A DNA stretch of 64,000 bases. It comes from Octopus vulgaris (lineage: Eukaryota). Of this stretch, positions 13,817 through 44,152 are shown in pieces; position 1 is the stretch's first letter; each line of letters begins with the position of its first letter. Below the pieces are notes generated by a model. That model was not told the origin of the DNA. It saw only the letters and a list, made by a program, of their open reading frames with translations, and did no database searches. Where the stretch lies: NCBI GenBank assembly GCA_951406725.2, contig OX597829.1:54064001-54128000 (forward strand), given 5' to 3'. Position numbers and translations under genes: made by a program.

Positions 13817-14235
13817 TATATTATATTAAATTAGAGACAAAACCACTATTAGGCAAATCAAACAATGAAAAGCCTTAAGCCAATACATATGATTAATTTA
13901 TATTATTTAAATATGTAACAAAATTATTAAAAAAATATAATTAATATCACACTATGATCGTTTCATGCCTGCTGTCTTCAAATTTTTGAGTCGCAGTCAT
14001 TCATCAGGTGGTTTAAACCTCATCAAGAAAAATATTTAAACCACCTGATGAATGACTGCGACTCAAAAATTTGAAGACAGCAGGCATGAAACGATCGTAG
14101 TGTGATATTAATTATATTTTTTTAATAATTTTGTTACATATTTAAATAATATAAATTAATCATATGTATTGGCTTAAGGCTTTTCATTGTTTGATTTGCC
14201 TAATAGTGGTTTTGTCTCTAATTTAATATAATATA
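13817..14235. repeat. near-perfect 201-bp-arm palindrome (17-nt loop) in a (TA)n tract; putative Penelope-like inverted pseudo-LTR
   Basis: Arms 13817-14017 and 14035-14235, one mismatch seen; (TA)n on both sides. Confidence 0.9.
14042..14102 (+). ncRNA. minimal type I hammerhead ribozyme motif (canonical core)
   Basis: cac-CTGATGA-atgactgc...gcaggcat-GAAA-cgatcg-TA-gtg: stem I cac/gtg, stem II, palindromic stem III, GUA cleavage triplet. Mirror copy 13950-14010 (-) has the stem III G mutated. Confidence 0.75.
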
Positions 14236-15133
14236 TATATATATATATATATAAAAACACTCATTCATACATACACTTAATCATATACATTATTTACATA
14301 CCTTTACAAGGCACACAACAAATAATCGTTTGTTTAGAACTCAGCATATTTTATTACACACTAATATATATACACTCAGAATGTATACATTCATGCCAGT
14401 GTACAGGTTGTGTAGATCATAGAGTAAAAGTACAATTTTATGTACAATATAAACCTATCCTTTTCTCACACATATGAGCTCAGCCCAATTCATTTTCATT
14501 TACTTAGATTAGCAACTTATTCATATATCATATAATATATTCTAATAAATGATATTTCGAAATCTCTGTAACTGACCCTAAATATCCAACATTTTTTATA
14601 TATTATGCTAATATTCTAAGGTGGTGAACTGACAGAGACATTAGCACACCGGGTGAAATGTTTAGTGGTATTTTGTCTGTCTCTACGTTCTGAGCTCAAA
14701 TTCCGACAAGGTCGACTTTGCCTTTCATCCTTTCAGGGTTGATAAATTAAGTACCAGTTGCATGCTGGAGTCGATCTAGTCAACTGGCTCCCTCTCCCCA
14801 AATTTTTGGGTCTTGTGCTCAGAATAGAAAAGATTATGTTAAAATTCTTGGAAACAACATCAGTTGACCAGCTAGAGCCCCACAGTAGTTATACACAACA
14901 TTTTATTTTTTCATTTAGAAAGGCAAATTTATGAATCTGTTTTCATTTTAGTGTTTAATTTCAAAGAGTATAAACGAGTAAAACACTATAGTCATTACCA
15001 CTGGTATGAGTTTACTTCACTTTTGCTTCAAAAATGATTTGTCATCAAAGAGTGGAATGAATGAATTAACCATATTTGATCTCTGATTTTGAAATACTTT
15101 TAAATAAACTTATTGTATCATTTTATTTTACAG

Positions 15134-15771
15134 ACCACTCTTAAAATTCACAAGAACATTCCAATCGATACAACAGAAAGATTTCTTGCCAAAGGAGGAG
15201 ATTCCTTATTAGCAATGCAATTTATTAACAGATTACAGCTTGATCTTAATTTGCAACTCAACCATATTCTTCCTTTGGTGTTACACAACCCATACAAAGA
15301 CATTCTAGACATTGTAAGAGAATCATTATCAAAATATAAACACTCTACAACTGACGAGGAAAGTAAACCTAGTGAACTAAAATTGAGCAGTGACAATTGG
15401 AAAGATATGAATAAGTCTGTGGAAAAGAAACACCTGGAAAATGTTCAAAATACGCAGCCACATTCAACTGACAGTGTAAATTATATCAATCATAGACAGA
15501 AGAATATTATTCCAAAACTTAGCAAAGATTCTTTAGGGAAACCTGAAAATGTTAATGTTGATGATGATAAAATATTGCCTAAAAAGAAGACGAAGACAAA
15601 TAATGTATCCAATAATCATTATGGTCTCCAACCAAAAAGTGATAACATTTCTTTAGAATTTCCAAAGTTAAATTCAGTCTGCTGCCATCACAGGAAAAAA
15701 GAAGTAAATATTCGTTGGACTTACAATACTGGAAAGTGTGTGGATGCTTCACCCGTTGTGGCACAGTTGAG
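15134..15771 (+). CDS. AASDH: AASDH internal exon (phosphopantetheine carrier domain, linker, start of PQQ-type propeller)
   Basis: ttttacag acceptor, gtaatt donor. Contains FLAKGGDSL (Ppant serine motif) and RWTYNTGKCVDASPVV. Confidence 0.93.
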
Positions 15772-16280
15772 GTAATTGTCATGAGTTACTTCATTTAATT
15801 TTACTATTATTTTATCTCATAATTTGTTTGGCATCTATTTTGCAGTTGATTTCAGGAAGTTTTGATTTTAGCCAATATTTCTTTGACACATTCTTGTTGT
15901 TTCTGCAATGTTTTTCATGAAACATACATACATACATATATACACAGATACATGCACACACTAGTTGTAAAATGTTCAGAATATACTCATCAATTACATG
16001 GTATAGGAAAAATAAAATGTTGAAAACATGCTGAATGTTTTTAACTAATTATATAATACAATATCACTCACAGTTTTATATAATTTCTTAAAAAAAAATA
16101 TAAAATAGTCATAGATCTTTCTCATACGTTTTCAACTCTTGTGAATTTTCAGAGTTGCTAAATGTCTTTATATAATTTCAACATACAATATAAAGCTAAG
16201 AACAAGTATTTTCCTATGGTGCTTATGGTATTTTGTTTTATTTGGTTTGTAAGATTCTTTATGTGAATTCGAAGCATATT

Positions 16281-16516
16281 CTGTTGTGCCTGGGGAGAGT
16301 CATTCTCTTTTGGTGCCTTATAATTTAACACACTCACTAGTAAAATTTCCACTTATTTCTTTTTTATTTTACTAAAATTTTCGTTGCACTATTGAAAATG
16401 TTGCAAGACGCAATGAACATTTTAGAAAAATAAAAATAAAAAATGTGGAAATTTTACCATTGAGTGTGTTAATGTATAAGGCACCAAAAGAGACTGACTC
16501 TCCCCAAACACAACAG
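16281..16516. repeat. diverged inverted repeat with a hammerhead-like motif at its centre
   Basis: Arms 16281-16387 and 16410-16516. Centre acta-TTGAAAA-tgttgc-aagac-gcaat-GAAC-attt-taga; the opposite arm preserves gcaac-GAAA-attt-tagt. Confidence 0.8.
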
Positions 16517-17219
16517 CTTATGGTATTATTATTGACAATGTTTGTAACAAGGGACATAAGTTATGATGTCACGTCAATGAAAACACAATGCATTTGATCT
16601 GATCTGTCATTTGTTTACAAACTGTATTTCTTTATCAAACAATTTGTTGCTTTGTTGTTGAACTTCCACAAATCAATTGTAAAATTAAATAATGTGCTTT
16701 CTCTTCAATTATATCTTTGTTGACACAGGAGAATTTTTCTAATGTACAGCTCTCAAATTGGCTGATGGTGTCATATCAGTTTTCTAAAAGAGTCATGCTT
16801 GTTAGACTAATATAAAGTTCTTACCAACCTCTTCATGCTAAGATATATAATAAATTTTTGAAGAAATGTAAAAAAATTGTTATTAGTCATATGCTCCATG
16901 GTTTTGTTATTTGCATTTACTTCTACAATCTCTGTTTTTTAGTGTAGTTTTCTGCATGTAGCATCATCATCATTTTAATGTCCACTTTTTCATGCTTAGT
17001 TGGGTTGGACAGAGTTTGTTGAGGTAGATTTCTTTTTAATTTTTTTATGGATGAATACCCTTCTTGTTGCCATTTCTTACCTGTTTCCAAGCAAGGTAAT
17101 GTTACCCCATGGCCAGACATGTTTTACATTGAAAACTGAATGACATCACTTACTTGATAGTGACACACATTTACAACTATCATGCAATGCCAAGGCAAGA
17201 AGACACAAACATACACATG

Positions 17220-17220
<1 letters not shown>

Positions 17221-17279
<59 letters not shown>

Positions 17280-17319
17280 TATATATACATACATACATAC
17301 ATACACACACACACATATA

Positions 17320-17351
<32 letters not shown>

Positions 17352-17382
17352 CACATACATACATACATACATACATACATAC
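17221..17382. repeat. (CA)n/(TA)n/(CATA)n compound microsatellite
   Basis: Seen directly. Similar tracts occur at about 25391, 26720, 34405, 34980, 35655, 38580-38860, 44305, 44840, 56290-56470, 60290 and 61500-61765. Confidence 0.95.
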
Positions 17383-18015
17383 ATTATTCATATAAAAATA
17401 CAGTGCTCATTTAAACACATAAGAGATGGCCATAACAGGACATCTGACTCGCTAGAAAGAGTAGTTAAACTACAAACCACTATTAGGGGTAATTTCGAAA
17501 GGGAATGAAAAATAAAAACATTTACCCTATATTTCCTGGACTATGCATAGTTTCAAGCAACCTTTTGTAAATAAAATAATTTAACAATTGTCGAAGCTCT
17601 CATCAAGAACATGCCTCATGTTTATATGTTACAATTTTTCAAAATCCACCGTGCACACGCGGTTTTTTATCAGCAGCAAATACAAAAAATGTCGATTTTC
17701 TTTCAAAATTACCCAAAAAACATTTTATCATTAATTAATAAATCTTTGAGTAGCAAAAAAAATTTAGAAAAATTCTTTGCTACCAGTGGTCTGTACTTTT
17801 CATTCCCTTTCAAAATTACCCCCAATAGTTGTTTGTAGTTTAACTACTCATTCTAGCGAGTCAGATGTCCTGTTATGGCCATCTCTTATGTGTTTAAATG
17901 TACACTGAATTTTTATATGAATAATATATAATCTATTGACTAGTTTTTTCTTCTCACTAGACCACTGGTAGCAAAGAATTTTTCTAAACTTTTTTTGCTA
18001 CCATAAGATTTATTA

Positions 18016-18018
<3 letters not shown>
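17383..18018. repeat. interleaved inverted repeats A-B-A'-B' between microsatellites
   Basis: A 17383-17510 / A' 17797-17925; B 17733-17792 / B' 17959-18018. Confidence 0.85.
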
Positions 18019-18046
<28 letters not shown>

Positions 18047-18049
<3 letters not shown>

Positions 18050-18196
18050 GGAATTTACAAAAAAAACAAAAGACGAAGACGGGTGTGTAAACAACAAACA
18101 GATGTATTAGTTTATTGCTTAGAAAGTGAGAGTCTTTTATGTTTCGTGCCTATGCTCTTCAACAGAAAGGAACACAGAAATAAACAGAGAGAGAAT
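18047..18196 (-). mobile_element. short (TA)n-embedded element with variant hammerhead (putative solo Penelope pseudo-LTR)
   Basis: cttt-CTGTTGA-agagc-atag-gcac-GAAA-ca-TA-aaag at 18134-18169 (-); homologous to 46632-46797 and 54690-54850. Confidence 0.65.
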
Positions 18197-18220
18197 ATAT
18201 ATATATATATATATATATAT

Positions 18221-20107
18221 CATCATCATCATCATCATTTAGCGTCCGTTTTCCATGCTAGCATGGGTTGGACGGTTCTGCTGGGGTCTGTGAAGCCAGA
18301 AGGCTTCATCAGGCCCAGTCAAATCTGGCAGTGTTTCTACGGCTGGATGCCCTTCCTAACGCCAACCACTCCGTGAGTGTAGTGGGTGCTTTTTACGTGC
18401 CACCCGCACTGGTGCCAGACAGAGCTGGCAAACGGCCACGAACGGATGGTGCTTTTTATGTGCCACCGGCACGAGGGCCAGGCGAGGCTGGCAACGGACA
18501 CGAAACGGGGCGGTGCTGGCAACGGTCGCGAAACGGAAAGTTCTCTTACATGCCACCGGCACTGGTAACACATCTGCAATTTCCATTGATCGATTTCCAT
18601 TGATCGATTTCGATTCTGATCCTCACTTGCCTCAATGGGTCTTCACAAGCAGAGTTTCGACATGCCACCGGCACTGGTAGCACATCCGCAATTTCCATTG
18701 ATCGATTTCGATTCTGATCCTCACTTGCCTCAACACGTCTTCACAAGTAGAGTTTTGTGTCCCAAGAAGGGAAGGTATGCATACGTAGGCTGGCTCCATC
18801 CCATGTAGAAGGCCACGGGTTGTGGACTCACTTGTCCTGCCGGGTCTTCTCGCGCACAGCACACTTCCAGAGGTCTCGGTCTCTAGTCATTTCCTCAGTG
18901 AGACCTAAAGTTCGAAGGTTGTGCTTCACCACCTCGTCCCAGGTTTTCCTGGGTCTGCCTCTTCCACAGGTTCCCTCAACCGCTAGGGCGTGGCACTTTT
19001 TCACACAACTATCTTCATCCATTCTCGCCACATGACCATACCAGCGCAAACGTCTCTCTTGCACACCACAACTGATGCTTCTTAGGTCCAGCTTTTCTCT
19101 CAAGGTACTTACACTCTGCCGAGTGTGAGTACTGACATTACACATCCATCGGAGCATACTGGCTTCATTTCTAGCGAGCTTACGCATATCCTCAGCAGTC
19201 ACGGCCCATGTTTCACTGCCATGTAGCATGGCTGTTCGTACACACGCATCATACAGTCTGCCTTTCACTCTGTGCGAGAGGCCTTTTGTCACCAGCAGAG
19301 GTAAGAGCTCTCTGAACTTTGCCCAAGCTATTCTTACTCTAGCAGTTACACTTTCAGCACACCCGCCCCCGCTGCTGACTTGGTCACCTAGGTAACGGAA
19401 ACTATCAACTATTTCTAGTTTTTCTCCCTGGAAAGTGACAGAAGTTGGTCTCAGAGCATTTTCAGTGTTTATTGTTCCTGAGCATCTGCCACATACAAAA
19501 ACCATCTTCCTAGTTAGCCTTCCTTTGACATTGCTGCATCTCTTATGTGTCCATAGCTTACACTTGGTGCATCTTATAGAGTTTCTACCTACACCTTTTC
19601 TACAGATCGAGCAGGGCCATCTACCTGAAGGTGTTTGTGATTTGTCAACCTTCCTACTGATTACGACTTTGGTTTTAGCTAGATTGACTCTAAGGCCCTT
19701 CGATTCTAATCCTTGTTTCCACACCTGAAACTTCTCCTCCAGTTCTGATAGCGACTCAGCAATTAGAGCAAGGTCATCAGCATAGAGGAGCTCCCAAGGG
19801 CATCCTGTCTTGAATTCCTCCGTTATTGCCTGGAGGACTATGATAAATAGGAGGGGCTGAGTACTGAGCCTTGGTGGACCCCTACCTCTACCCGGAATTC
19901 TTCACTGTACTCATTTCCAACCCTCACCCTACTAGCGGCGTCCCTATACATGGCCCGCACAGCTCTCACTAACCATTCATCTATCCCTAGTTTTCTCATT
20001 GCCCACCAGATAAGGGATCGGGGGACCCTGTCGAAGGCTTTCTCCATGTCAACAAAAGCCAGGTACAGGGGCTTATCTTTGGCTAGGTATTTCTCCTGCA
20101 GCTGCCA
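18221..20107 (-). mobile_element. 5'-truncated, well-preserved RTE-clade LINE inserted in (TA)n
   Basis: RT motifs AFVDMEKAFDRV, GVHQGSVLSP, LYADDL (about 19770-19790), FRYLG, LHGSETW, RRLRWYGHV, GRPRKTW. One 1-bp frameshift near 19855; 3' UTR with tandem units; (GAT)n tail. Confidence 0.95.
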
Positions 20108-20129
20108 TATATATATATGGTGCATTTGC

Positions 20130-21341
20130 TTTTAATAATTCTGCAGAGAAAGAGGCTTGGAGATGCCATTATGAAAGACTGCTGAAGAACATGGAGAATG
20201 AATGGGAGGAGGAGACCCTGCTAAATGTTGACTCAATTGAGGGACCATCTACTTGAATAGACAGTACCCTGGTAAATAAAACAATTAGGGATATGAAGAC
20301 AGGAAAAGCCTCTGGCCTACTCAAGATCACAACTGAGATACTTAAAATATATGATGGTGTGGGTTTTGGTCTAGTCACCTGTATTATAAATCAGGTGGTT
20401 CATGAAGGAGTCATACCCAATTATTGGTGGAGCAGCACCATAGTCAACTGCTATAAAGGTAAAGCTGATGCCTTAGATAGAAATAACTACAGGGTATCAA
20501 ATTATTGGATCAGGTGATGAAAGTTACCGCATAGCCCAACTAATTAAGGAGAGAGTTAGCCTAGATGAGATGCAGTTTGGTTTTGTGCCAGGTAGAAGCA
20601 CCATTGATTCTATATTTCTGGTAAGACAATTGCAGGAGAAATACCTAGCCAAAGATAAACCTCTGTACTTGGCTTTTGTTGACTTGGAGAAAGACTTTGA
20701 CAGAGTCCCCTGATCCCTTATCTGGTGGTCAATGCAGAAATAGGAATAGATGAGTGGTTGGTGAGAGCTGTACAAGCCTTGTACAGGGACACTACCAGTA
20801 AGGTGAGGGGAGACAACGAGTACAGCTGAGAATTCAGGGTACAAGTTGGGGTTCACCAAGGATCAGTGCTCAGCCCCCTCTTGTTCATCATAGTCCTTCA
20901 AGCAGTAACAGAGGAATTGAAGACAGACTGCCCCTGGGAGCTCCTCTGTGCTGATGACCTTGCTCTTATAGCTGAATCATTACCTGAACTAGAGAAGAAG
21001 TTCCAGGTATGGAAGCAAGGTCTAGAATCAAAGGACCTTAGAGTTAACCTAGCAAAAACCAAAGTCATAGTGAGTAGGAAGGTAGGCAAATCACAAATCC
21101 CTTCAGGCAGATAGATCTGCTCGATCTGTAGAAAAGATGTACATAGAAACTCCGAGATGCACTAATGTAAGCTTTGGACATACAAAAGGTGCAGCAACAT
21201 CAGAGGAAGGTTAACAAGGAAACTAACTTTTGTATGTGGAAGGTGGACAGGTACAATAAACACTGAAAATGCACAGAGAATAGACTCCATCAACTTCCAG
21301 TGGGGCAAGCTAGATGTAGTAGATAGCTTCCAGTATCTTGG
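20130..21341 (+). mobile_element. older degenerate RTE LINE copy (linker and RT)
   Basis: MKTGKASG, CYKGKAD, DLEKDFDRV, GVHQGSVLSPLLF, LCADDL; several stops and frameshifts. Confidence 0.9.
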
Positions 21342-22440
21342 CTTCATAAAGGCTTTTGATAAGTCAGATCATGGTATATGTCACATGCTGTGAGATCTTG
21401 GCATAGCTGGTTAACTGGGAAAGTGGTTGCATGACTTCCTTAAAGAGAGAAGTCAGGCAGTTGCAGCCAATGGTGCCCTCTCTGAGGAAACTCAAATTCT
21501 AAGTGGCGTCCCCCAGGGAACTGTCTTGGGGCCCTTACTGTTTATAATAGCTCTCTTAGACACGCCCATGGTTACTTAGACAGCCACTGTCACTAGCTGT
21601 GCTGATAATACAAAATTATCATAGGCAATAAAGAATCCAGAATGAAATATACAATTGGGCTGAAATAAACAACATGCGGTTTAATGCTGGAAAATTTCAA
21701 GCACTATGCTGTTAGCTCACAAATATACCACAGCTTGCATATCCAGGACCCAAAGGCACTGCAATCCCAGAGTCACAGGCAATGAGAGACTTGGGGATCA
21801 TATGTAGATTAATCAAGATGGCAGCAAAGTGAAGACATCTGGCAGGATGGATACAAAGGTTCTTCAAGACAAGAGACCAAAAAGTTATGTTGACCCTGTG
21901 GAGGACCTTTATTCTCAACTGTCTGCACTACTGCTCTCAGCTATGGTCATCATGTAATGCCACACTAACAGCAGAGCTTGAAGTGGTCCAACATCACTAC
22001 ATTAAAAAGACTGTAACCATGCAGCAGATGAGCTACAGGGAAAGGCCGAAAAAACTGTGACTTTACTCCCTGGAATGAAGACGTGAGAGATATGTAATAA
22101 TCTACATATGGAAAACTCCAGAAGGGCTAGTGCCTAATTTTGGCATTGTGTGTTATACAAATGCCCAAACTGGATACTGTTGTATTGTACCAAAGGTACC
22201 CTCCACTCCATCTAAATTCAGGACCAGGTACTGCAATAGCTTAGGGCTCAAAGGCTCACAGTTCTTCAATTCTCTGCCACAAAAATGAAGAAACAAACTC
22301 AATGTGGACGTAAATGTCTTCAAAAAGGAAATTGACAATCTCCATTCCAAAATACTGGATGAACCAACAACCTGGCATGAGGTCAGTGATATCAAACTCC
22401 TTCATACACCAAATGGGCCAACACTCTGGGAAAAGCACAT
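21342..22440 (+). mobile_element. degenerate CR1/L2-type LINE RT and 3' region
   Basis: FIKAFDKSDH, SGVPQGTVLGPLLF, CADNT (decayed YADDT), NNMRFNAGKF, YCSQLW motifs. Confidence 0.8.
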
Positions 22441-22576
22441 GCAGGAGTAGTGATGTGAAACCCCACTGGCTTGAAGAAATCAACCAAAGAAGCATTGTAC
22501 ATAAAAGTGAAGAATCACAGTGGTGCTCCAGCATGACTGAAGCTGTGTGGCTGAAACAAACTAAAGAATAAAGAAC

Positions 22577-22900
22577 ATCATCGTCATCGTTTAATGTCCA
22601 CTTTCCATACTGGCATGGGTTGGACGGTTTGACTGGGGTCTGGCAAGCCAAGAGGCTGCACCAGGCTCAGTCTGATTTGGCAAAGTTTCTACAGCTGGAT
22701 GCCCTTCCTAAAACCAACCACTCCAAGAGTGTAGTGGGTGCTTTTTATGTGCCACCAGAATGGGAGTCAGTCTGGTGGCACTGACATCGACTACACTTGA
22801 ATGATGCTTTATACATGCTGCTGACACGGGTGCCAGTCAGGTGGCATTGGCATCAGCCGTGCTCTTATGGTGCTTTTTACATGCCACCAGCATGGGGAGA
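22577..22900 (-). mobile_element. RTE-LINE 3' UTR fragment
   Basis: Same tail family. Confidence 0.75.
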
Positions 22901-23687
22901 GCCAGTAGAAAACATTGCCTGAGGTGCCACCAGTGGGATTGAACTTAGAATCATGTGTTTAAGAAGTAAACTTCTTAGCACAGCCACATGATTATCATTT
23001 TTAACAATTTACTTTGCATTTTACTTTTAATAATTGGATGCATTCCTTTTACTTTTTTTTTTCTTACTCACCTGTATTACCTACCTGATAACAAGATAGG
23101 ATTTTGCTGAATATTTACAAAACCTTGATTCTTAAGTTTGAAAATATCTCAAAAACAGCATAAACTGTGACATATAATTTACTATGGAGTACATTACAAC
23201 AGGACAGTATTAAGAATACATTAGTAACAAACTTCCGTTCTTGAATAGTGATAAAATAAAATAAGAAATTAAGAATTACTGATAAGGCTTTTTATCTATA
23301 CTTTGTCAAGCAAAACATATTCAAGTCAACATTCCACTTAGTAAAGCAAATTTTTACAAAAGGTATGAAGGAAATGAAGGGAAAAAAATACCCCATTGAA
23401 TTCAGTCGATCGGGTAATTCAAAGAATGAAGCAAACCTTAAAAGCTGCTCGGCTTTCTGTCTTGACTTTTATCTCAAACTATGTTGAATCCTTTGTAAAT
23501 ATTCATCTAAGCCTACTATATTATTATGACATCAAACGATCAAAAAAATAACAGACATTTATTCTTGACAAGAAAAAATTTGTTAACAAAGATGAAACAA
23601 GCACAAAGGTACATACTAAAATTATGAATCTAAAAGTCAATAAATATAAACAACCAAACTGTATAGTATGTACCTATATATAATGTT

Positions 23688-23727
<40 letters not shown>

Positions 23728-24367
23728 GTACCACAAGGAGCCATTCTGTGTATAGCCCCTTGTGGGTAATAAAAAATCATGTATAATATGTATCTATATT
23801 TCAGAAGGTCCCAAATTTCATTTAAGGAAGGACCTACTTTGTAAACCAAAAATAATTTTTCATGTAGCTCTGAAAATTTAATATATATTTTAATATGCAA
23901 AGGCTACCAAGAAGTTTATATAGGCCTAAAAGACATGATATTCTGTGGAAGGATGAAATTACACCATCAACAAATTAGGGAGCCATACTCAAGAAATATT
24001 CCACTGAGTCAGTATACAGAGGGGTCTGATGCAACAAAGGTGTTAAGAGGTAAAGGATGTATTGATCAAGGATGCTTGAGTGGAGGAAGATTGACACTAG
24101 CCAACTCCAGGGAACAGAGGCCATTATAATAACAATAGAAAATCCATGAAAGAGATAGCACCCACTACACTTTCAGAGTGGTTGGCATGTTTCTTAGTGA
24201 TTTAATCCCATTCAGTAAAATGTCTGTGCATATAACAACAGTACTATCCCAGATGTAGGAGCTGTACTCCATTGTAATTCCCAGTTAATCTTTTTGTGAA
24301 GTATTCATAATTGTAAGCTGAAATATTTTCTTACCCTTAAGAGAAAGGCCAGTATTTAGGATTCAGT

Positions 24368-24752
24368 TTGGACGTTATCAAAGAAGCTTGAGAGGCGGTT
24401 GGATGGAACCTACACTCGCCTCCTTATGAGAGCTCAAAATCTCTCGTGGAAGTGTCATCCAACCAAAATGCAAATATATGGGAAACTACCACCTGTGTCA
24501 TCTCTTGTGAAAGGTGGGAGAGTCCAGTTTGCTGGACATTGTTGTAGAGCTGAAAACGAGGTAATTTCTACTCTTCTCCTCTGGAAGCCATCTACTCGCA
24601 ATACCAGAGGGTACACACTCTCCTACCCTGATGTAATCTCCAGGGATACAGGCATCCAGCAACAGGACCTCCGTAATGCCATGATGGACCGTGAAGTCTG
24701 GTGTAGCCAGGTAAATTCCATTGTCTCGACCACGGTCGAACAATGATGATGA
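24368..24752 (+). mobile_element. 5'-truncated LINE of a second RTE-like family, with 11-bp TSD
   Basis: Open frame WTLSKKLERRLDGTYTRLL...RVQFAGHCCR...MMDREVW, (tga)n tail, TSD taggattcagt at 24357-24367 and 24753-24763. Confidence 0.88.
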
Positions 24753-24899
24753 TAGGATTCAGTCCTTGAGACCTAGATGTGTTAAGGATGTGCTTTCACC
24801 AGTAGAGATCTTTAGTGATAGTGAAGCCCAACATTTGGATTAATCATGAGGTTTCTTGTTGAGTATCATTCGTGTTTGATGAGGTGTCGTAATATTTTT

Positions 24900-25385: not shown

Positions 25386-25386
25386 T

Positions 25387-25438
<52 letters not shown>

Positions 25439-25784
25439 CATGACTCAAGTTTCATGTGACCATGATCTTCAGGTGAAAATTGTTGCAACTTAGTGGTGTA
25501 CGTTGTGAGTGTGATTTCTTGCTTATGTCTGTTAACTGGTTTACTTCTTGTCTTTGCTTATATTTATTGCTATTCTTGTTCCTCTTCATTGGTTACTTTT
25601 GTGACCTGGTGTTTACTATCCTTATTATAATGTAGAAAGCTGCTTAATTAGTTATGTAAAAGTTACTAAAAGAAAGCAATTATTGAATTATTGAAGGCTT
25701 AACCGTCTAGAAATTTTTTTTATAAGTCCATGTTCCAAGAAATTTCCTGTATTTTCAATTTCTGAAGTTTATTGAATATTTGAA

Positions 25785-26658: not shown

Positions 26659-26714
26659 TCAATGTGGAGTAGATTTTAATGTTTAATAAACAATATTATT
26701 CATTTGCAATAGTC

Positions 26715-26786
<72 letters not shown>

Positions 26787-33274: not shown

Positions 33275-33585
33275 TTAGGTGGTACGTAAAAAGCACCATC
33301 CGATTGTGGCCGTTGCCAGCTTTGTCTGGTCCCCGTGCCGGTGGTACGTAAAAAGCACCATCCGATCGTGGCCGTTTGCCAGCCTCGTCTTGCACCTGTG
33401 CAGGTGGCACGTAAAAAGCACCCACTACACTCACGGAGTGGTTGGCGTTAGGAAGGGCATCCAGCTGTTGAAACACTGTCAGATCAGACTGGGCCTGGTG
33501 CAACCTCCTGGCTTCCCAGATCCCAGTTAAACCGTCCAACCCATGCCAGCATGGAAAGCGGACGTTAAATGAAGATGATGATGAT
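33275..33585 (+). mobile_element. RTE-LINE 3' UTR fragment
   Basis: Same tail family. Confidence 0.8.
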
Positions 33586-33928
33586 GTGTCTCGCTGTCCC
33601 TACCTCCATTGCTAGTATTGTTGTCATTATTGTTTCTATTCTTATTAGTATTTCTATTCTCAGTGAAATTTATAAGGATATCACAATTATAGTAATCATT
33701 CATGTCATATCTCTCTCCCTCATTTTTGCTATATTCCAGAATATTTTATGTATTATAGGTATTACTGATTAGAGTGTAAGTCCACCTCTTGCTGAGATTT
33801 GCATTTTCATTAGTGTTTTCTCTTGTATTTTCATATTTACTCCTTCCTATAATTATTCTTTTCTACTCTCAGCACTAGGCCCGAAATTTTTCGAGAAGCC
33901 TTCACTTTCATCGCTACCTGGTGGTTAC

Positions 33929-33971
33929 CGCCCGTTGACGAGGGACAACCATCCCGAAACTAGTTCGAGCG
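33929..33971 (+). ncRNA. minimal type I hammerhead motif (C3U)
   Basis: cgcccg-TTGACGA-ggga-caacca-tccc-GAAA-ctag-TT-cgagcg: 5 of 6 bp in stem I, 4-bp stem II, palindromic stem III. Confidence 0.7.
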
Positions 33972-34397
33972 TATCACTCAGGCTTGCGAGGAAGGGATGG
34001 CCTCCCTTTGCAAATACTCCAAAGACACAGATATTGTGTTTAGAGCCAGCTAGAGACGAAGATCTCTTGGGGCTATAAAGCTACAGTAACAACCCCCTCC
34101 CCAATGTGGTTAGCCATGATAAGATGGCTTCTATACTTTACATTATATATATATAATTATATATTATACACACACACACACACACATATTAGGCCTCCAG
34201 ACTTCTTCTCTGGGCAATGTTTTCTTTCCTATTCCCTCTTCCTTTTGTTTACCCATGTTATCCCTGGGCATGGGTATGCAGGTACACTATGCTCGTAGAG
34301 TACAGGTAACAACAGAATAAACAAAAGTTTATCAGGAAACAAATATAAGTAATCAGAAAATGGCGAAAACTTCAGATCAACAAACAAATTATATGTG

Positions 34398-34445
<48 letters not shown>

Positions 34446-34447
<2 letters not shown>

Positions 34448-34977
34448 CAATGATAAATCTCTGAGCGAGGTATAAACAGTAGCTGCAGGACATCGTGAAG
34501 TATAATTGTCGCTTAAATGTGGCTAACCCTTAAGGGTGGATGCTACTGTAGCTTGTAGCCCCAGGAGGACACCTCCTCCACCTGGCTATTGACATACTTT
34601 CTGTGCCCTATCAATATTTGCAAAGGGATATACTACTGGTTATGCCTCACTCAGAGATTTATTATGGCTTGTTTGCACTTTTTCAATATCAGTGACTTTT
34701 CGTCACTGGAAAAAGGATACATATATTTGCATTGGGAACCACTTCACATCGACAACTGGTGATTGTCACACACTGATGACAGGTCAATATCCAGAAACTC
34801 AGGTCCATGTGTATCACGTCAGGTTGGAGATGGGAAGGATGGCTTCCCCTTTGCAAATACTGATAGGGCATGAAAGTTTGTCAATAGCCAGCTGGAAAAG
34901 ATGTTCTCCTGGGGCTACAAGCTAAAGTAACATCCACCATTATGGGTTAGCCACATTTAAGTGGCAAATATACTTCA

Positions 34978-34981
<4 letters not shown>
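34446..34981. mobile_element. (TA)n-flanked inverted-repeat element containing a hammerhead motif (putative Penelope pseudo-LTR pair)
   Basis: Arms about 34492-34628 and 34846-34981. Motif cacaca-CTGATGA-cagg...cca-GAAA-ctcag-GTC-catgtg at 34767-34811. Homologous to 33900-34145. Confidence 0.75.
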
Positions 34982-35028
<47 letters not shown>

Positions 35029-35650
35029 GGGCATCCAGCCGTAGAAACACTGCCAGATCAGACTGGGCCTGATGCAGCCTTCTAGCTTCACAGACCCCAG
35101 TTGAACCGTCCAACCCATGCTAGCATGGAAAGCGGACGTTAAATGATGATGATGATGATGATGATGATATATAAAAGGTAAGCAGAGTTAGTGGTTATAA
35201 TAACTGACTAAGGGATAAAATATCTGTATATACTATCGGTATCAGTTACCCATGTTATCCCTGGGCATGGGTATGCAGGTACACTATGCTCGTAGAGTAC
35301 AGGTAACAACAGAATAAACAAAAGTTTATCAGGAAACAAATATAAGTAATCAGAAAATGGTGAAAACTTCAGATCAACAAACAAATAAATTGGACCACAT
35401 CTATAGGTTGTTATTTAATACAAGACATGACATAACATTTATGTGACATAACAATTCTTATGGCCTTTTCCACTGCTGATGCCAGTCAGTGCTTATGAAA
35501 GAATTGCAAAAATAATATTCTTCATCTTCATAGGATATTCGAACTAGGACATGGAACTTCATCTGAGTGAATACAAAAGTGTCCAAAATAAACAAAAGGA
35601 AGAGGGAGTAGGAAAGAAAACATAGCCTAGAGAAGAAGTCTGGAGGCCTA

Positions 35651-35706
<56 letters not shown>

Positions 35707-36076
35707 GGTTAGCTGAGATAGAGCTTAAAATAATTGTCCAAGGGATAGAAGTATCCATTACCTTACCCGTATATTACCTATGTTTAACCATGGGTATACA
35801 TATGTAAGCATATTAAACTCATAAATTATAGGTAAAGACAAGGATAAACATGAGTTTATTAAAAATCAAAATTTGGTAAAAATATTACCAAATATGATAA
35901 ATATTTTAGCATATCAATGGCAATACCAAACAACACTGGAAGCAGAAACAGCTGTTAGGTGGGATGCAGTCTATTTGTATTGAATTAAATAATAATTGAT
36001 GTAAGTCAATTGTTGTTCATCGATATTTTTTTCATTTCTTGTCTTCTTTAAATTTATATATATATATATATACACA

Positions 36077-37116
36077 CAATGGTTGGACAAAATAATGGAA
36101 ACACCTAGCATCATAGCATCATAATTTTGAAATATCTATAAAACTATCAAAAGCTTGTTTATTTTTATGCTTTTTGATTTATTATAAGTGTTGATTAGTA
36201 TATTTTGCTAAAATTGCTGTTTCTTTTCAGATATTATCAGAAAAATGGTAATTAAAATTCATTAAAATGACAGATCTATCAGAATTTCAAAGAGGTCAGA
36301 TTGTTGGTGCTTGTATGGCAAGCGCCAGCATAACAAAAACAGCCAAAATGTTTGGTGTATCAAGGAGTACTGTCTTGAAAGTAATGACAGCCTTTGAGAA
36401 AGAGGGAAAAACCTCCTTGTCGAGACAAAAACTCCAGAAGAAAACCAAAACTTTCAGATAGGGACTGTTGGACTCTTACACGAATTGTTAGAAAAAATCA
36501 CATAAGTACAGCTCCCAGAATTACTGCAGAGCTTAATGACCACCTTGAGAACTTAGTTTCCACAAAAACTGTTTGCTGGGAGGTGCACAAAGCCGGATTT
36601 CATGGGAGGGTTGCAATCAGAAAACCACTACTTTCAAAAACAAATGTTGCAAAGTGTTTAGAGTGGAGTAAAAACCTACAGAATTGGTCCCTAGAACAGT
36701 GGAAGAATGTTATTTTCTCAGATGAGTCATCCTTTACAGTATTTCCAAGCACTGGCCGAGTATATGTGTGGAGATAGCCAAAAGAACCATTTGACCCAGA
36801 TTGCCTTCTTCCAACTGTTAAACATGGAGGAGGATCTGTGATGATCGGGGGAGGGCTATATCTTGGAAATCCACCTGCCCAATGGTTTCCCTTCATGGCA
36901 AAATTAATAGTGTAGAAAAACAAGTAAAGAGTCAATATCCTCCACCATCATCACTACAAGAACTGGAGACTGTTTTAGCTGAAGAATGGACAAAAATTCC
37001 TTTGCAAACAATTCAAACTTTGTATGAGTCCATATTTCAAGCTGTAATTACTGCCCTATATAAAAATAAATTTGTTTGAAATTTTAAGGTGTTTCCATTA
37101 TTTTGTCCAACCCCCA
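36077..37116 (+). mobile_element. Tc1-like transposon with internally deleted transposase pseudogene
   Basis: TIRs ggttggacaaaataatggaaacacct at both ends; MTDLSEFQRGQIVG, RKPLLS, WKNVIFSDESSF, TVKHGGGSVM; frameshifts and stops. Confidence 0.93.
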
Positions 37117-37136
37117 TATATATATGTATTTATGTA

Positions 37137-38387
37137 TTAGGTTGTCTCACACGAAATGTATTTGAAATGGGTTTCTTATGAGTCATCTATAAATGGATTT
37201 TTAATGAGTTTCTATGTATTTGTTTGTGTTTACACTTAAAACTTTTTCTTTCGAAACAATACTATCATTCAAAATTGCTACCCACAGTTCTTATGACAAT
37301 GTAGACAATTGAACAATACCGAGTGATATTCTTGTATGAATACAAGTTGGGTCACTCTGCTACTGAAGCTCTATGAAACATCAAACAGGCTTTTGGTAAC
37401 CATTCTGTTGACATTAGAACTGTTCAGAGATGGTTCCAAAGATTTCGTTCAGGAAATGAAAGCCTTAAAAATGAACCAAGAGGGAGACCAAAATCAGTTA
37501 TATGGTATGATGAACTGAATGCTTTGGTTAAACGAAATCCGAGAACAATGGTCTGAAAAATCAGATCAGAGCAACAGACATCTCCCAAAACTGCTTCTCA
37601 ACACTGAAGAAAATTAGAAAAGTCAAAAAGGTGAATAGATTTGTTCCCCATCAATTTAATGAGATTCAAAGAAACAGATGCCTTACAGTGTGTTCCATGT
37701 TGATTTCTCAGTTGGAAAGAGAACCATTTTTGTATGAACTTATTACATGTGATGAGAAATGGATGCTCATTGATAACAGCAGGACAGGACAGTGGTTAGA
37801 TGCAGGAGAGTCACCAAAACACTACCCAAAACCCTAAAAAGTTGATGGTCACTGTATGGTGGTCAACAAAGGGAGTTCTTCATTATTCATTTTGGCAGCA
37901 AGGAAACTCTTCAACAGCAACTTCCTATTGTCAAGAAATTAATTTTATGCATGAAAAATTTTAAAAAAAAGCAACCCGGATTAGTGAATAGAAATGGCCC
38001 AATTTTGCTTCATGATAATGCCAGGCCTCACACTTCTCAAGCTATTGTCCACAAGTTGCAAAGCCTGAATTATAAAATTTTGGTAGATCCTCCTTATTCT
38101 CCTGATATCTCTCCTACTGATTATCACATATGTAAACACTTCAAGCTTGCTATACACAATAAAACATTCTTAAATAAAGAATAGGTAATTGATGCATTTG
38201 AACAGTTTATCTGTGTAAAAGATGACAAATTCTTTGAAGATGGAATATATGCCTTAGAGGAACGTTGAATGAAGGTCATAAATGAACAGGGATGATATTT
38301 TGATTAAATAAATAACTATTCTAAAACTTAAAAAACAATTTTAATGTTTCCTTTTTCAAATGTGACATTTCATGTGAGACAACCTAA
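37137..38387 (+). mobile_element. full-length mariner relic (about 1.25 kb)
   Basis: TA|ttaggttgtctcac...gtgagacaacctaa|TA TIRs; FVPHQF, ITCDEKW, LHDNARPH, PPYSPDISPTDY (DD34D); frameshifted. Confidence 0.93.
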
Positions 38388-39525
38388 TATTTATGCATGT
38401 ATATATGTTTGTGTGTGTATGTGTGTATATATGGAGAAGTTTTATGTTAACTTATGATAAAAAACAATTTTACATTAAAACGAAGGATTACTCATTTTTG
38501 TTGAGTACAAATTTCTTATTCTTTAACAAGAATAATATTGTTACTAATTTCAAGGTTTTGGGCAGTTGCTGATAATACACACACACACACACACGCACAC
38601 ACACAGAGGTAGGTAGGTAGGTACACATATACATATATGCACGCACATACACACACACACATATAGATAGGTAGGTAAGTAGGCAGGTACACATATATAT
38701 ATATGCATATACACACACATATATGCAGACACACACACATATATAGGTAAGTAGGTAGGTAAGTGGATAGGTAGGTACACATATACATATATATGCACAT
38801 ACACACATAGATACATATATATATATATATATTCAAACACACACACACACATATACACATAGACACCTCTGCCATTTGTTGACTTGAGAAGGCATTTGAT
38901 AGCTTTCAGTAATTTTGTGGCCACTAAGGAAACTAATGACCTGTGAGAGCTGTACAGGTGTTGAAAGGTGAAGTGAGTAAAATGTAAGTCAACAGCAATT
39001 TCAGTGACGAGCTTAGTTTAAGGATAAGAATTCATCAAAGCTCAGTCTTCAGTCTTCTCCTTCTTCTTGTAGTCTTACAAGACATCACAGAGGAGTCTAA
39101 AACTGGCTCTCCATGGGGACTCCTATAGGCTGATGCTCTGGTTTTCTGAGCTGAAATTATAAGAGGAATTAGAGAGAAAATCCCAGGCATGGAAGCTAAA
39201 CCAGGAGCCAAGCGGTCTTAATGTAGAGTCAGCAAAGACAAAGGTTCTAGTAAGTAGGAAAGAAGAATGGATCCTGATACCTTCATTGAAATAACCTTGC
39301 TCAATATGCAGAATAATAGTATGCATAAATTATATATGCTGCCACTGAGGTTGACTTTGTCTTTCAGCCTTTTGGGGGTCAATAAAATATATACCTATTG
39401 AGAACTGGGACTCGTATAATTGACTTCCCCCTTCCCTCAAAATTTCTGACCCTGTGCCAAAAATTAGAAAGCAACAAAACAGATAGATCCACCAGGTTAA
39501 TCAGCTGTAATCATCTTGGCTCATT

Positions 39526-40259
39526 CATCATCATCATCGTCGTTTAGCGTCCGTTTTCCATGCTAGCATGGGTTGGACGGTTCTACTGGGGTCTGTGAAG
39601 CCAGAAGGCTTCATCAGGCCCAGTCAAATCTGGCAGTGTTTCTACGGCTGGATGCCCTTCCTAATGCCAACCACTCCGTGAGTGTAGTGGGTGCTTTTTA
39701 CGTGCCACCCGCACAGGTACCAGACAGAGCTGGCAAACGGCCACGAACGGATGGTGCTTTTTATGTGCCACCGGCACAAGGGCCAGGCGAGGCTGGCAAC
39801 GGACACGAAACGGGGCGGTGCTGGCAACGGTCGCGAAACGGAAGGTTCTCTTACATGCCACCGGCACTGGTAACACATCTGCAATTTCCATTGATCGATT
39901 TCCATTCTGATCCTCACTTGCCTCAACGGGTCTTCACAAGTAGAGTTTCGACATGCCACCGGCACTGGTAACACATCTGCAATTTCCATTGATCGATTTC
40001 CATTTCTGATCCTCACTAGCCTCAACGGGTCTTCACAAGTAGAGTATCGACATGCCACCGGCACTGGTAACACATCTCCAATTTCCATTGATCGATTTCG
40101 ATTCTGATCCTCACTTGCCTCAACAGGTCTTCACAAGTAGAGTTTTGTGTCCCAAGAAGGGAAGGTATGCATACATAGGCTGGCTCCATCCCAAGTAGAA
40201 GGCCACGGGTTATGGGCTCACTTGTCCTGCCGGGTCTTCTCGCGCACAGCACACTTCCA
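39526..40259 (-). mobile_element. RTE-LINE 3' end, same subfamily as 18221
   Basis: Nearly identical to 18221-18868; three copies of an about 98-bp 3' UTR unit. Confidence 0.9.
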
Positions 40260-40726
40260 TTATAATTATATTTCTGCTCACTGATTACACAATGTTTTAA
40301 TCATATTTTAATCCTGACAAAGATTTTTTTAAAAAAATTTCTCTCAAATATAGATACTGTACTTGTTTATTACTGTAAATTGAAACCCATCTAAACAAGC
40401 AGGTACTCTCCTTCCCCCTCAGAGAACTGTCATGACATTTACTGTCCCACTTCTGAGCTCACAATGCCTCTGCTTCACCCTGCAAGGGAACCTACCACCA
40501 AAATTAAGAACCAATGCACTAGATATGCACCGTAATTCAATGAAGAGATTCAGTGCTGATAGCATATCTACACAACCTTATGTAACATTACAAAGGGAAG
40601 TAATTGAATCAGTTAGCTTATGAGTGTACAAAATTAGTGTTAACTATAAGAGCAACACCAATTCACATGCATACTTAAGAACTGCATATAGTCTGCCATC
40701 ACCATCACAACCCAATTTCATACACA

Positions 40727-41104
40727 GCACATGGCCCAGTGGTTAGGGCAGTGGACTCGTGGTCATAAGATCGCGATTTCGATTCCCAGACCGGGCGTTG
40801 TAAGTGTTTATTGAGCAAAAACACCTAAAAGCAGCACGAGGCTCAGGCAGGGATGGTGGTGATCCCTGCTGTACTCTTTCACCACAACTTTCTCTCCCTC
40901 TTACTTCCTGTTTCTGTTGTACCTGTATTTCAAAGGGCCGGCCTTGTCACTCTCTGTGTCACGCTGAATATCCCCGAGAACTACATTAAGGGTACACGTG
41001 TCTGTGGAGTGCTCAGCCACTTACACATTAATTTCACGAGCAGGCTGTTCCGTTGATTCGGATCAACCGGAACCCTCGTCGTCGTAACCGACGGAGTGCT
41101 TCCA
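40727..41104 (+). mobile_element. SINE family C copy
   Basis: Near-identical to 31159-31541. Confidence 0.88.
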
Positions 41105-41551
41105 CACATATTTGTGCTTATCTTGTGTGTGTGTGTGTTTGTGAAATCAGATGTTTGTGCAGGCTGGAACACAGAGTGTTTTCCAGTTGAAGTCAGATGT
41201 AGAGGATTCGTGGGAAACTGTGAGGGGACTGTCGTTATCGTTAGGCCTAACTTACCATGAATGATATCCAAACTACTGTGGAAAAGGCTAGCCACTGGAA
41301 TTGGTTAAAAAGAGACAATGAGTGATGGCTAGAAGAATATTGTGCTATATCTGATAACTAGTTGATTGAGTAAGTGGGGACCACATGTCAGTGAGTGGGG
41401 CCAGTGTACACTGATGGCGTTGAGAGGTAAGCCCCAAAATGGCACGCATTCTCTCCCGATGACCCCCATACACTTGCTGGCTTCCAGTATGTGGAACTCT
41501 CAGCTGGTAACACTTCCATGAGCAAATTGTTTGCAAAACATATATATATAT

Positions 41552-42088
41552 CATCATCGTTTAACGTCCGTTTTTCATGCTAGCATGGGTTGGATGGTTC
41601 GGCTGGAGTTTGGGAAGCCAGGAAGCTGCACCAGGCTCCAGTCTGATCTGGCAGCGTTTCTACAGCTGGATGCCCTCCTTAATGCCAACCACTCCATGAG
41701 TGTAGTGGGTGCTTTTTACATGATATATATGTATATACATTCATCATCATTTAACGTTTGCTTTTCATGCTGGCATGGGTTGGACAGTTTGACTGAGGAC
41801 TGGCGAACCAGATGGCTGCACCAGGCTCCAATCTGATCTGGCAGAGTTTCTACAGCTGGAGCCCTTCCTAATGCCAACCACTCCAAGAGTGTAGTGGATG
41901 CTTTTTACATGCCACCGCATGAGGGCCAGTCAGGCAGTACTGGTAACGGCCATGCTCAAATGGTGTTTTTTACGTGCCACTTGCACAGGAGCCAGTCCAG
42001 CAGCACTGGCAACGACCTCACTCAAATGTTTTTTCACGTGCCACCAGCACAAGTGCCAGTAAGGCGACGCAGGTAGCGATCACGCTTG
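41552..42088 (-). mobile_element. two tandem RTE-LINE 3' UTR fragments
   Basis: (cat)n tails at about 41552 and 41741. Confidence 0.8.
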
Positions 42089-42089
42089 A

Positions 42090-43292
42090 ATATATATTTT
42101 TGAAATTGTCTGATAATACAGACATAGGCCGACCCAAATATGTCAATAAATTAACATTGATATTTTTTACCATTATTACAATCATCTGAAATGGAACTTC
42201 CAAAGCACGATATTCAAGCAATTTTGCTATTCAGCTTCAAAAAAGGACATAAAGCAGCTAAAACTGCTTGCGATATTAACAAAATGTTTGGTAAGGAAAT
42301 GACCAGTGAGTGGTCAGCTCGAAAATGGTTTAAACAATTTTGCATTGGAGACCTGAGGCTTGAAGATCATGAGTGTAGGGGATGCCCATCTGTATCGATG
42401 ACAGTCAATTAAATACCGTCATTAAGAAAGAGCCACGTAAAACCACTTTAGAACTGGCAAAAGAACTTCAAGTTAATCAGAAAACTGCCTGCAACTTTTT
42501 GCATGCGATTGGAAAATCAAAAAAGCTCAAAAAATGTGTACCACATGATTTGAATAAAAATCCGAAAATGCACAGATATGAAATTTTGCTCATCACTTCT
42601 TCTCTATAACCAGACTGTTCCTTTCTCAACCGTATGGTAACTTGCGATGAAAAGTAGATTCTGTATAATAAAAAAAAAAAACTTTCTTCCTAGTGGTTGG
42701 ACCAAAATGAAGCACCAAAAACCTTCCCTAAGCCCGAGCTCTTTAAAAAGAAGGTTATGGTGACTGTTTGGTGGTGTACTGCTGAAGTCACCCACTATAA
42801 CTTCTTAAAACCTGGAAAAACTATTACTGCAGAAACATATTGCCATGAAATTGCTAAAAATCAACGAAAAACTGCGACTCTTCCATCCGAGACTGGTCAA
42901 CAGAAGAGGGCCAATCATTCTTCATGAAAATGCTCAACCACATGTTTCACTAATGACGCTCCAGAAGTTGAGGGAACTTGGCTACAAAGTTCTTCCCCAC
43001 CCAGTTTATTCCTCAGACCTTTCTCCTACCGACAACCACTTTTTCAAGCACCTAGATGGTTTCCTGCGAGAGAAGGAGTTCAAAAATCAAACCAATGCTG
43101 AAAGTGTGTTCAAAGAGTCCATCAGCTCCAGAACTCCAGATTTTTATGTTACCAGAATAAACAAACTTGTAACTCATTGGCAAAAATATGTTGGTTGTAA
43201 TGGTACTGACTTTGATGAATAAAATTTCTGCATTGTTGAAATACATTGTTATTAATTTCATGTTTCAAAACATTGCTTACATTTTACTCAGC

Positions 43293-43296
<4 letters not shown>
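42090..43296 (+). mobile_element. mariner transposon relic, left TIR not seen
   Basis: MELPKHDIQAILLFSFKKGHKAA HTH, CVPHDL, TCDEK, KVMVTVWW, LHENAQPH, YSSDLSPTDNHFF; right end ...tactcagcctga|TA. Confidence 0.9.
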
Positions 43297-43339
<43 letters not shown>

Positions 43340-43994
43340 ATATATATATATATATTACTCTTTTACTCTTTACTCTTTTACATGTTTCAGTCATTTGACT
43401 GCGGCCATGCTGGAGCACCGCCTTTAGTCAAGCAAATCGACCCCGGACTTATTCTTTGTAAGCCCAGTACTTATTCTATCGGTCTGTTTTGCCGAACTGC
43501 TAAGTGACGGGGAAGTAAACACACCAGCATCGGTTGTCAAGCAATGCTAGGGGGACAAACACAGACACACAAACACATACACACACATACATATATATAT
43601 ATACATATATACGACAGGCTTCTTTCAGTTTCCGCCTACCAAATCCACTCACAAGGCATTGGTCAGCCCGGGGCTATAGCAGAAGACACTTGCCCAAGAT
43701 GCCATGCAGTGGGACTGAACCCGGAACCATGTGGTTGGTTAGCAAGCTACTTACCACACAGCCACGTATACATACAAAAAAAAAAGACAAGCTTAAAATT
43801 TTCCAATGATTAACAATCAAGTATAAATATGTTTTTTTGCTTTTTTAATAGAGCAAACTTACTCAGATTACATAGACTCAGAGAATCAGCATAGAGAAGG
43901 TGTTACAAGGCCAACAGCTGTCTATTAAAAAAATATAGATTCATACTTGATTGTTAACCATGTGCAAAATTGAAGCGTTCCTTCTCTTTTTACA

Positions 43995-44024
<30 letters not shown>

Positions 44025-44027
<3 letters not shown>

Positions 44028-44152
44028 ATGAGAGAATGGAGTCGAACGACAATTTTAACAAAATTCCTTTACTTTCGACATATGTTTCGAAACATATGTC
44101 GAGAATAAAGGAATTTTGTTAAAATCGTCGTTCAACTCCATTCTCTCATTTA
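44025..44152. repeat. spacerless 64-bp-arm palindrome centred on TTTCGAAA, inside a (TA)n-flanked element (44025-44300)
   Basis: Arms 44025-44088 and 44089-44152; each arm reads GAAAC-ATAT-GTC outward from the centre. Confidence 0.88.

Follow-up and report, generated by a model that had tools for sequence, protein, structure and literature searches.

Arm ends of palindromic Penelope-like insertions in Octopus vulgaris and their position relative to a predicted hammerhead cut site

The window analysed here is a stretch of 64,000 nucleotides (nt) of the Octopus vulgaris genome (contig OX597829.1 of assembly GCA_951406725.2, positions 54,064,001 to 54,128,000). It consists mostly of intron sequence of an AASDH-like gene, with exons for a phosphopantetheine-binding domain and an ACSF4-type propeller. 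The palindromes in it are each a single copy of a dispersed high-copy family (1160–5347 first-look candidates in families 1–4), and we number the families after the palindromes at 13817 (family 1), 16275 (2), 44029 (3), 34446 (4) and 58266 (5). They share a layout of arms that diverge from the centre, the meeting point of their 5' ends, with an extra 3' tail on one arm and with (TA)n or AT-rich flanks. On sequence grounds they are head-to-head Penelope-like element (PLE) insertions. A preliminary description had pointed out four of them, by positions 14035, 16387, 44088/44089 and 34446–34981, all of which are present in the sequence. It proposed that the axes of symmetry coincide with a hammerhead ribozyme, whose structure or processing would decide where reverse transcription folds back or switches template to make the inverted pseudo-long terminal repeat (pseudo-LTR). 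Mapping of arm ends in the five families points elsewhere, to the 5' limit of the RNA and, in family 1, to the predicted ribozyme cut site.

Distribution of arm ends

Searches with whole palindromes return copies with the same axis, which mimics support, and these were set aside as biased. Unbiased sampling used exact patterns in the distal tail, of which the first listed places were taken, and both arm ends were mapped on natural long copies. For families 1–5, respectively, 100 of 486, 70 of 1246, 68 of 69 (window copy excluded), 30 of 434 and 30 of 172 tail-pattern matches were retrieved, and 98, 70, 68, 26 and 26 loci were analysed. These samples favour young, tailed subfamilies. Duplicates and second views of one locus were dropped (L118, L238, L207, L210, L216, L218, L386, L389, L393, L396 and L424).

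Between a quarter and a third of the usable length of an arm is taken up by the hammerhead motif. Arm ends inside it are not enriched in any of the five families, with 22, 26, 16, 2 and 3 observed against 46, 25, 25, 3 and 4 expected from length, so the axes do not coincide with the hammerhead beyond chance. The three axes cited as examples each hit another part of the motif, namely the leader, stem II and the core, and none of them is at the cleavage site. At 44088/44089 the axis does lie at C|G of GAAA, and the identification as a hammerhead holds through longer relatives with CUGANGA and stem II. Across the genome, an exact C|GAAA axis nevertheless occurs at 6 loci, compared with 3432 motif-bearing arms, and we ascribe the one in the window to TTCGAA being self-complementary, a chance microhomology. 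The axes at 14035 and 16387 are near the ribozyme because it lies just behind the 5' limit, or start, of the RNA. In the family 4 palindrome the motif is far from both arm ends; relative to the core one is at about −118, and relative to the cut the other is at about +40. The family 5 palindrome, uncited earlier, is a counter-example; its axis is 55–70 nt 3' of the family's hammerhead cut site and the hammerhead itself is absent from the window copy. The examples are coincidental or promoter-driven, and the question they raised is answered positively in one family. A uniform distribution of breakpoints, the comparison suggested in the preliminary description, does fail in three of the five families, whose breakpoints are clustered.

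In family 5 the arm ends gather at an AT run, 43–94 nt from the cut on its 3' side.

Arm ends at the RNA 5' limit

The first cluster lies at the 5' limit of the copied RNA, which is 42 nt before the core in family 1, 13 nt in family 2 and 80 nt in family 3. Ends within about 10 nt of this limit make up 30 of 156, 30 of 87 and 12 of 76 in the three families, against 11, 9 and 5 expected from simulations. The limit is likely to be the transcription start of a pseudo-LTR promoter. Outside support comes from an initiator-like TTAGTT at the family 1 limit in unspliced copies. Furthermore, in 9 of 13 family 2 arms (7 of 11 without two ambiguous ones, p ~0.001) and in 7 of 11 family 1 arms, most of them ambiguous, the limit is preceded by an extra G that the long form lacks. 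This G is likely a copied cap.

In long copies of family 1 (L260, L261) the 5' layout is an exon of 28–29 nt and then a GT..AG intron of 700 nt (joint 626–1327), whose end is 13 nt ahead of the core; no such intron was seen in families 2–5. The same layout, with a 5' intron ending at helix I, has been described in Penelope of D. virilis (PMC2377424, PMC4209133). The window copy at 13817 is spliced and its arms end at −34 and −10; the copy at 16387 has one end at −4. In one family 1 copy (L265) another leader, long and AT-rich, is attached 13 nt before the core and may represent a second intron type.

Arm ends at the predicted cut site of family 1

A second cluster was found in family 1, at and just 3' of the predicted cut. 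Processing by the ribozyme thus appears to be a determinant of breakpoints for one class of ends in this family, at a place some 65–75 nt from the axis for which it had been proposed. The interval from 0 to +12 nt 3' of the cut holds 33 of 114 ends in the first set and 17 of 46 in a replication set of 30 new loci, before which the interval had been fixed, giving 50 of 160. Six subfamily-matched null models, including uniform, microhomology-driven, symmetric, AT-preferring and decaying breakpoints, yield 8–26 of 160. In successive bins of 13 nt the observed profile is 50, 11 and 7, against flat or later-peaking nulls.

The pile has a component resolved to a single base. From the first 100 of 176 matches to a family 1 junction pattern, 68 intact rows, 6 point mutants that are intact and 1 ambiguous row were removed. 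Of the 25 junction-bearing rows left, 14 begin with the base directly following GUA, and 5 more are compatible with this. In two other subfamilies, 18 independent starts lie at or before +3, of which 6 are on the exact base and 6 more are compatible with it (two tandem duplicates were removed, and about 30 rows starting at +4 or later, partly chance, were left unscored). Pooled, exact-base starts make up 20 of 42 junctions (p 3e-9 to 2e-7). Few family 1 ends lie at +1 to +3, and there is no extra G before any of 21 exact-start rows. All 21 rows are preceded by T and none by C or G, A-preceded rows having been scored apart (L406–L424); the T would fit a non-templated A added to the end of the complementary DNA (cDNA). 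From the 19 exact-start loci retrieved, 8 partner arms could be mapped, all ending at +5 to +14, and with three earlier loci this holds for 11 of 11 (p ~3e-6). The same 19 loci include 9 independent single arms joined to unrelated flank at the exact base, and one partner that ends in the tail.

Part of the family 1 template pool is thus likely to be the self-cleaved 3' product of the hammerhead, and the position of the starts suggests that family 1 RNA cuts itself in the animal.

Formation of the palindromes

Palindromic loci number 80 of 98, 46 of 70, 43 of 68, 13 of 26 and 16 of 26 in families 1–5. The tail is one-sided: in 78 of 80, 46 of 46, 41 of 43 and 14 of 16 palindromes the partner arm has its end at a short site whose position is fixed. 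This fixed site matches the two start sites and the extension on two strands seen in vitro with the Poseidon element (PMC11167929). In 25 of 80, 23 of 46, 22 of 43, 5 of 13 and 9 of 17 palindromes of families 1–5, the arm without the tail extends beyond the tailed one on the 5' side by more than 10 nt. Each arm then holds sequence that is absent from the other and neither can be a DNA copy of the other, which contradicts a simple form of the fold-back suggested earlier as the source of the inverted pseudo-LTR.

The two arms of a pair belong to the same subfamily, at a median divergence of 1.1%. Homogenisation of the arms by gene conversion was considered and found unsupported; arm-to-arm divergence is no lower than divergence to the nearest other copy. 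Spliced arms outnumber intron-bearing ones by 41 to 7, and loci scored on both arms are spliced/spliced in 11 cases, intron/intron in 1 and mixed in 0. The matching splice state of mostly spliced arms points to one sense RNA and against self-priming on an antisense template (PMC3846280). Contigs of four sequencing runs also show the spliced joint; the joined form exists as DNA too, and starts and ends are not readable from contigs. At the junctions of family 1 (n = 80) the arms overlap by at least 1 nt in 46, are blunt in 6 and are separated by filler in 28.

Palindromes outside microsatellites in family 2 (L139, L145, L146, L158, L160) show, by eye, target-site duplications of about 10–18 nt. 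Family 3 has 'tail-only' insertions (L169, L172, L272, L277, L285, L297, L301) with 5' ends at +55 to +63, the place where the short arm has its 3' end; it looks as though a tail-primed cDNA had stopped where a second enzyme starts.

We think it probable that each palindrome consists of two cDNAs made from one sense RNA, that the axis is where they stopped, and that in part of family 1 the cut site sets the axis. Two reverse transcriptions of the same RNA would each be primed at one cut strand of an AT-rich target, one from the end of the tail and the other from an inner site, and both would run towards the 5' end of the RNA, where the cDNAs would be joined by 1–8 matching bases or a short filler. 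Their stopping points would be the promoter start in the pseudo-LTR, the cleavage site of the hammerhead in family 1, where the template would be the self-cleaved 3' product, and random earlier points. As the promoter start is only 13–80 nt before the hammerhead, many axes would come to lie near it. On a cut template one cDNA would run off at the cut and the other would be trimmed to the first AT-rich match. The ribozyme would not be needed for a palindrome to form, since stops are also placed at the transcription start and at random earlier points; where it cuts, the axis would be set there. In the twin priming of LINE-1, two nicks in the target prime two cDNAs that are joined by microhomology, leaving a 5' inversion. 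The inverted parts of LINE-1 barely overlap, whereas here the same 100–200 nt are often copied twice, which results in a palindrome.

Alternative explanations

Several observations weigh against reading the two clusters as a promoter start and a cut. The 5' limits were defined from the same data. With a strong AT-preference null the locus-level count at the cut is not significant (25 vs 20, p 0.14), although the shape of the profile still is. Most ends of the family 1 pile are at +4 to +8 and not at 0. The up/down association between two arms, at p 0.006 in the pooled data, has p 0.62 in the replication set alone. Furthermore, the pile is seen in family 1 only, as families 2–5 have 10, 8, 0 and 1 ends at 0 to +12 against 9, 4, 1 and 1 expected. 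No exact-site spike was seen in family 3 (about 1 of 17 junction rows, in a listing dominated by another subfamily) or in family 4 (1 of 5 at the exact site). Family 5 gives a suggestive hint, with 6 of 7 starts at or compatible with the site, mostly preceded by TA. Finally, for the lizard PLE Poseidon in vitro, cleavage was reported to be unnecessary, with uncut RNA as the dominant substrate and no reads ending at the cut (PMC11167929).

The main rival is the 'structure' half of the earlier idea, in which nothing is cleaved and the folded hammerhead is a roadblock; reverse transcriptase would stall at the core or where stem I has its 3' base, and the released cDNA ends would anneal through the AT-rich bases that follow. 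The 36 of 50 ends at +4 to +8 fit this, being at the base of a stem I of 3–6 bp. The depletion of family 1 ends inside the motif, the predicted pairing of stem I in some subfamily folds and the weak cleavage of minimal PLE hammerheads in vitro (PMC4209133) agree with it too. The observed pattern, a spike confined to one base at the scissile bond and few ends at +1 to +3, is, however, that of run-off from cut RNA. Stronger hairpins in families 3 and 4 show no pile, and exact-site starts also occur in single-arm insertions. Stalling alone is therefore an explanation that we consider unlikely, though still worth keeping in mind. Fold-back, in which a short palindrome lets one cDNA or antisense RNA snap back and serve as its own template, was proposed for rotifer PLEs (PMC3846280). 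Many junctions are indeed nearly symmetric about ATTAAT, TTTAAA or TTCGAA, the 46 overlapping junctions of family 1 would suit it, and short templated snap-back fillers do occur (L132, L254). It is very improbable as a general route, which is largely refuted by arms that are non-nested in a third to half of the palindromes and sometimes barely overlap (L175, L177). The mostly spliced, hence sense, templates and an arm-to-arm divergence no lower than that to the nearest other copy also speak against it, and it may contribute a minor step at the junction.

Breakpoints that are random or guided by AT microhomology, or a later deletion of the centre, would make any axis look close to a ribozyme when arms are this short. 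Such chance fully accounts for 44088/44089, for 34446–34981 and for families 4 and 5, the pile of family 5 at its own AT run included. It cannot yield the 50, 11, 7 profile, the one-base spike, the G added before the 5' limit or the single-arm copies that start at the exact site, and for family 1 the replicated base-level spike already refutes it; as an account of the whole it has next to no probability. Just as little credit is given to another kind of RNA end, such as a second site of transcription initiation or a cryptic splice donor. In family 1, the sole family with a clear spike, the sequence at the site is A|GT, with GT beginning right after the cut. GTA|GTG(T/G)(G/A) is, however, a poor splice donor, and A|G is not a pyrimidine-purine initiator. 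The exact rows lack an extra G, and the suggestive starts in family 5 begin at C. Two cDNAs from one sense RNA, cut in part of the family 1 pool, therefore remain our preferred account.

Identity of the elements and their hammerheads

Long copies of families 1 and 3 run upstream into the C-terminal part of a GIY-YIG open reading frame (ORF). Pfam GIY-YIG matches them at E 2e-4 and E 3.5e-3, respectively, both just under the curated cut-off, and the two are 36% identical to each other (E 8e-22). The family 1 ORF has a cluster of four cysteines before the endonuclease, with a spacing that differs from the CX2-5CxxC zinc finger of Neptune. In that of family 3 (L429:1037–2314, minus strand) an asparagine-rich linker without a zinc finger precedes the endonuclease; this long linker resembles the N-rich inserts described in rotifer PLEs. 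The identification is weakened by the longest frames retrieved (205 and 426 aa), which are 5'-truncated and have no match to a reverse transcriptase family, and by the ORF link being made for families 1 and 3 only: two upstream stretches of family 2 contained no GIY-YIG ORF. A miniature inverted-repeat transposable element, derived from a DNA transposon, was rejected because centres vary between copies, the ends are asymmetric (tail) and the templates are spliced.

The order of a type I hammerhead (core CUGANGA, GAAA, NUH) is present in families 1, 3, 4 and 5, whereas family 2 has only UUGAAAA and a UUU triplet. In family 1 the core is constant apart from position 7, while stem II varies in length. 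Compensatory pairs, counted for families 1, 4 and 5, are clearest in family 5 (8 of 19; 98% paired) and family 4 (5 of 13), and only 1 of 13 in family 1 (88% paired); the sequences are related, so that shuffles overstate significance. RNAalifold, unaided, did not recover the family 1 hammerhead, and single-sequence folds were unstable. An Rfam scan of the window (E<=1) gave no hammerhead match and only miRNA-like noise, as expected for minimal motifs.

Features of the window

The features are listed in Table 1. The arms of the family 1 palindrome overlap through TTTAAA(C) microhomology at 14012–14017. In family 2 (16275–16522) the left arm stops in the 3' strand of stem II and is followed by ACTA-TTGAAAA. 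The core TTGAAAA (16392–16398) is of the U3-A8 type, stem I has 3 bp, and the GAAA of the window copy carries a mutation, so that its motif is a weak candidate for a ribozyme. The family 3 element is a very short copy, from the 3' end of a PLE that encodes GIY-YIG, without the CUGANGA and the full stem II that its longer relatives possess.

Table 1. Positions of the palindromes, their parts and the host exons in the window.
Feature	Position	Strand	Remarks
Family 1 palindrome	13817–14235		arms 13817–14017 and 14035–14235
Family 1 tailed arm	13740–14017	−	hammerhead sense on minus; ~75-nt extra 3' tail; (TA)n end 13706–13740; 5' end 10 nt before core
Family 1 mirror hammerhead copy	13948–14011	−	triplet AUA via single change at 13955
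Family 1 tail-less arm	14012–14235	+	5' end 34 nt before core, within short exon 1
Family 1 exon-exon junction	14031–14032	+	700-nt GT..AG intron of longer copies removed; 13 nt before ribozyme core
Family 1 minimal type I hammerhead	14041–14104	+	TTTAAA from 14035; stem I CCAC/GTG(T)G (CCAC 14041–14044); CUGAUGA (CTGATGA 14045–14051); stem II; GAAA 14088–14091; palindromic CGAUCG; GUA (GTA 14097–14099); predicted cut 14099|14100
Host exons	15134–15769 and 58742–58900		PP-binding and Beta-prop_ACSF4 matches
Family 2 palindrome	16230–16522		tailed arm on minus to 16387 in stem II; tail-less arm from 16388
Family 4 element	34446–34981		~360-nt tandem-type unit; hammerhead 34773–34805
Family 3 palindrome and tail	44029–44305		palindrome 44029–44149, tail on plus strand; axis 44088|44089 in TTCGAA; predicted cut 44100|44101
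Family 5 palindrome	58185–58499		palindrome 58266–58499; tailed arm on minus; axis near 58383

At one family 4 locus (L425), as in the window element, the units stand in tandem, 361 nt apart. Family 5 is a tandem-type unit of about 510 nt (window copy and loci L376–L405), whose hammerhead is canonical and covaries strongly. More local inverted repeats lie at 17379–18021, 57123–57871, 34168–35672 and 51739–52812, the first of them with nested inversions and a motif resembling the end of family 1.

Relation to known systems and significance

The elements, their ribozymes and the inverted layout are already known. The inverted pseudo-LTR of endonuclease-containing PLEs (PMC8557442, PMC3846280) shares with our families a head-to-head, inverted, 5'-truncated copy, a one-sided tail, (TA)n targets, a short overlap or palindrome at the junction, a hammerhead in the pseudo-LTR as well as GIY-YIG at the C-terminus. 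The passages of these two papers drawn on here contain no mapping of breakpoints on the ribozyme. PMC3846280 favours self-priming on an antisense template, whereas here the arms are mostly spliced and non-nested, with a G that is likely cap-derived. The minimal type I hammerheads that Cervera and de la Pena described in PLEs (2014, PMC4209133) have the same core, an extra base before stem II, a short palindromic helix III, the U3-A8 variant, an intron ending at helix I and pairs of motifs on opposite strands 100–700 bp apart. Evidence for cleavage in vivo was stated there to be absent, and a difference is that our family 1 insertions begin at the predicted cut. With Poseidon of Anolis in vitro (Frangieh et al. 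2024, PMC11167929) our families would have in common that both target strands are cut and extended and that two internal start sites define the tail, along with a predicted dimer and a protein-assisted ribozyme. Unlike Poseidon, a sizeable share of family 1 insertions appears to be derived from cut RNA. The hepatitis delta virus-like ribozyme of R2 fixes 5' junctions (Eickbush et al. 2013, PMC3774820), but it belongs to another ribozyme class and another retroelement, and its cut makes the full-length RNA, whereas here the product is shortened and lacks the core.

Craig et al. 2021 (PMC8557442) called the function of the hammerhead in these elements unclear, and both its role and the formation of the inverted repeats are stated as open in the cited parts of PMC4209133, PMC8557442, PMC3846280 and PMC11167929. 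A literature search, covering papers without their supplements, found no map of insertion breakpoints on PLE hammerheads. With slightly more confidence than doubt, we propose that the palindromes are a fossil map of the 5' ends of the transposition RNA. A dimeric PLE enzyme would make two copies of a single sense RNA, starting at two fixed sites, and the family 1 hammerhead would cleave in the germ line, with the cut product being inserted. This would overturn the model of antisense self-priming and make ribozyme activity readable from any assembly. If true, the template of PLEs is a sense, capped and spliced RNA, cutting can give short, core-less insertions instead of full elements, and breakpoint maps reveal which hammerheads cut in vivo. 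The breakpoint test needs a genome assembly alone and is applicable to any PLE-rich animal.

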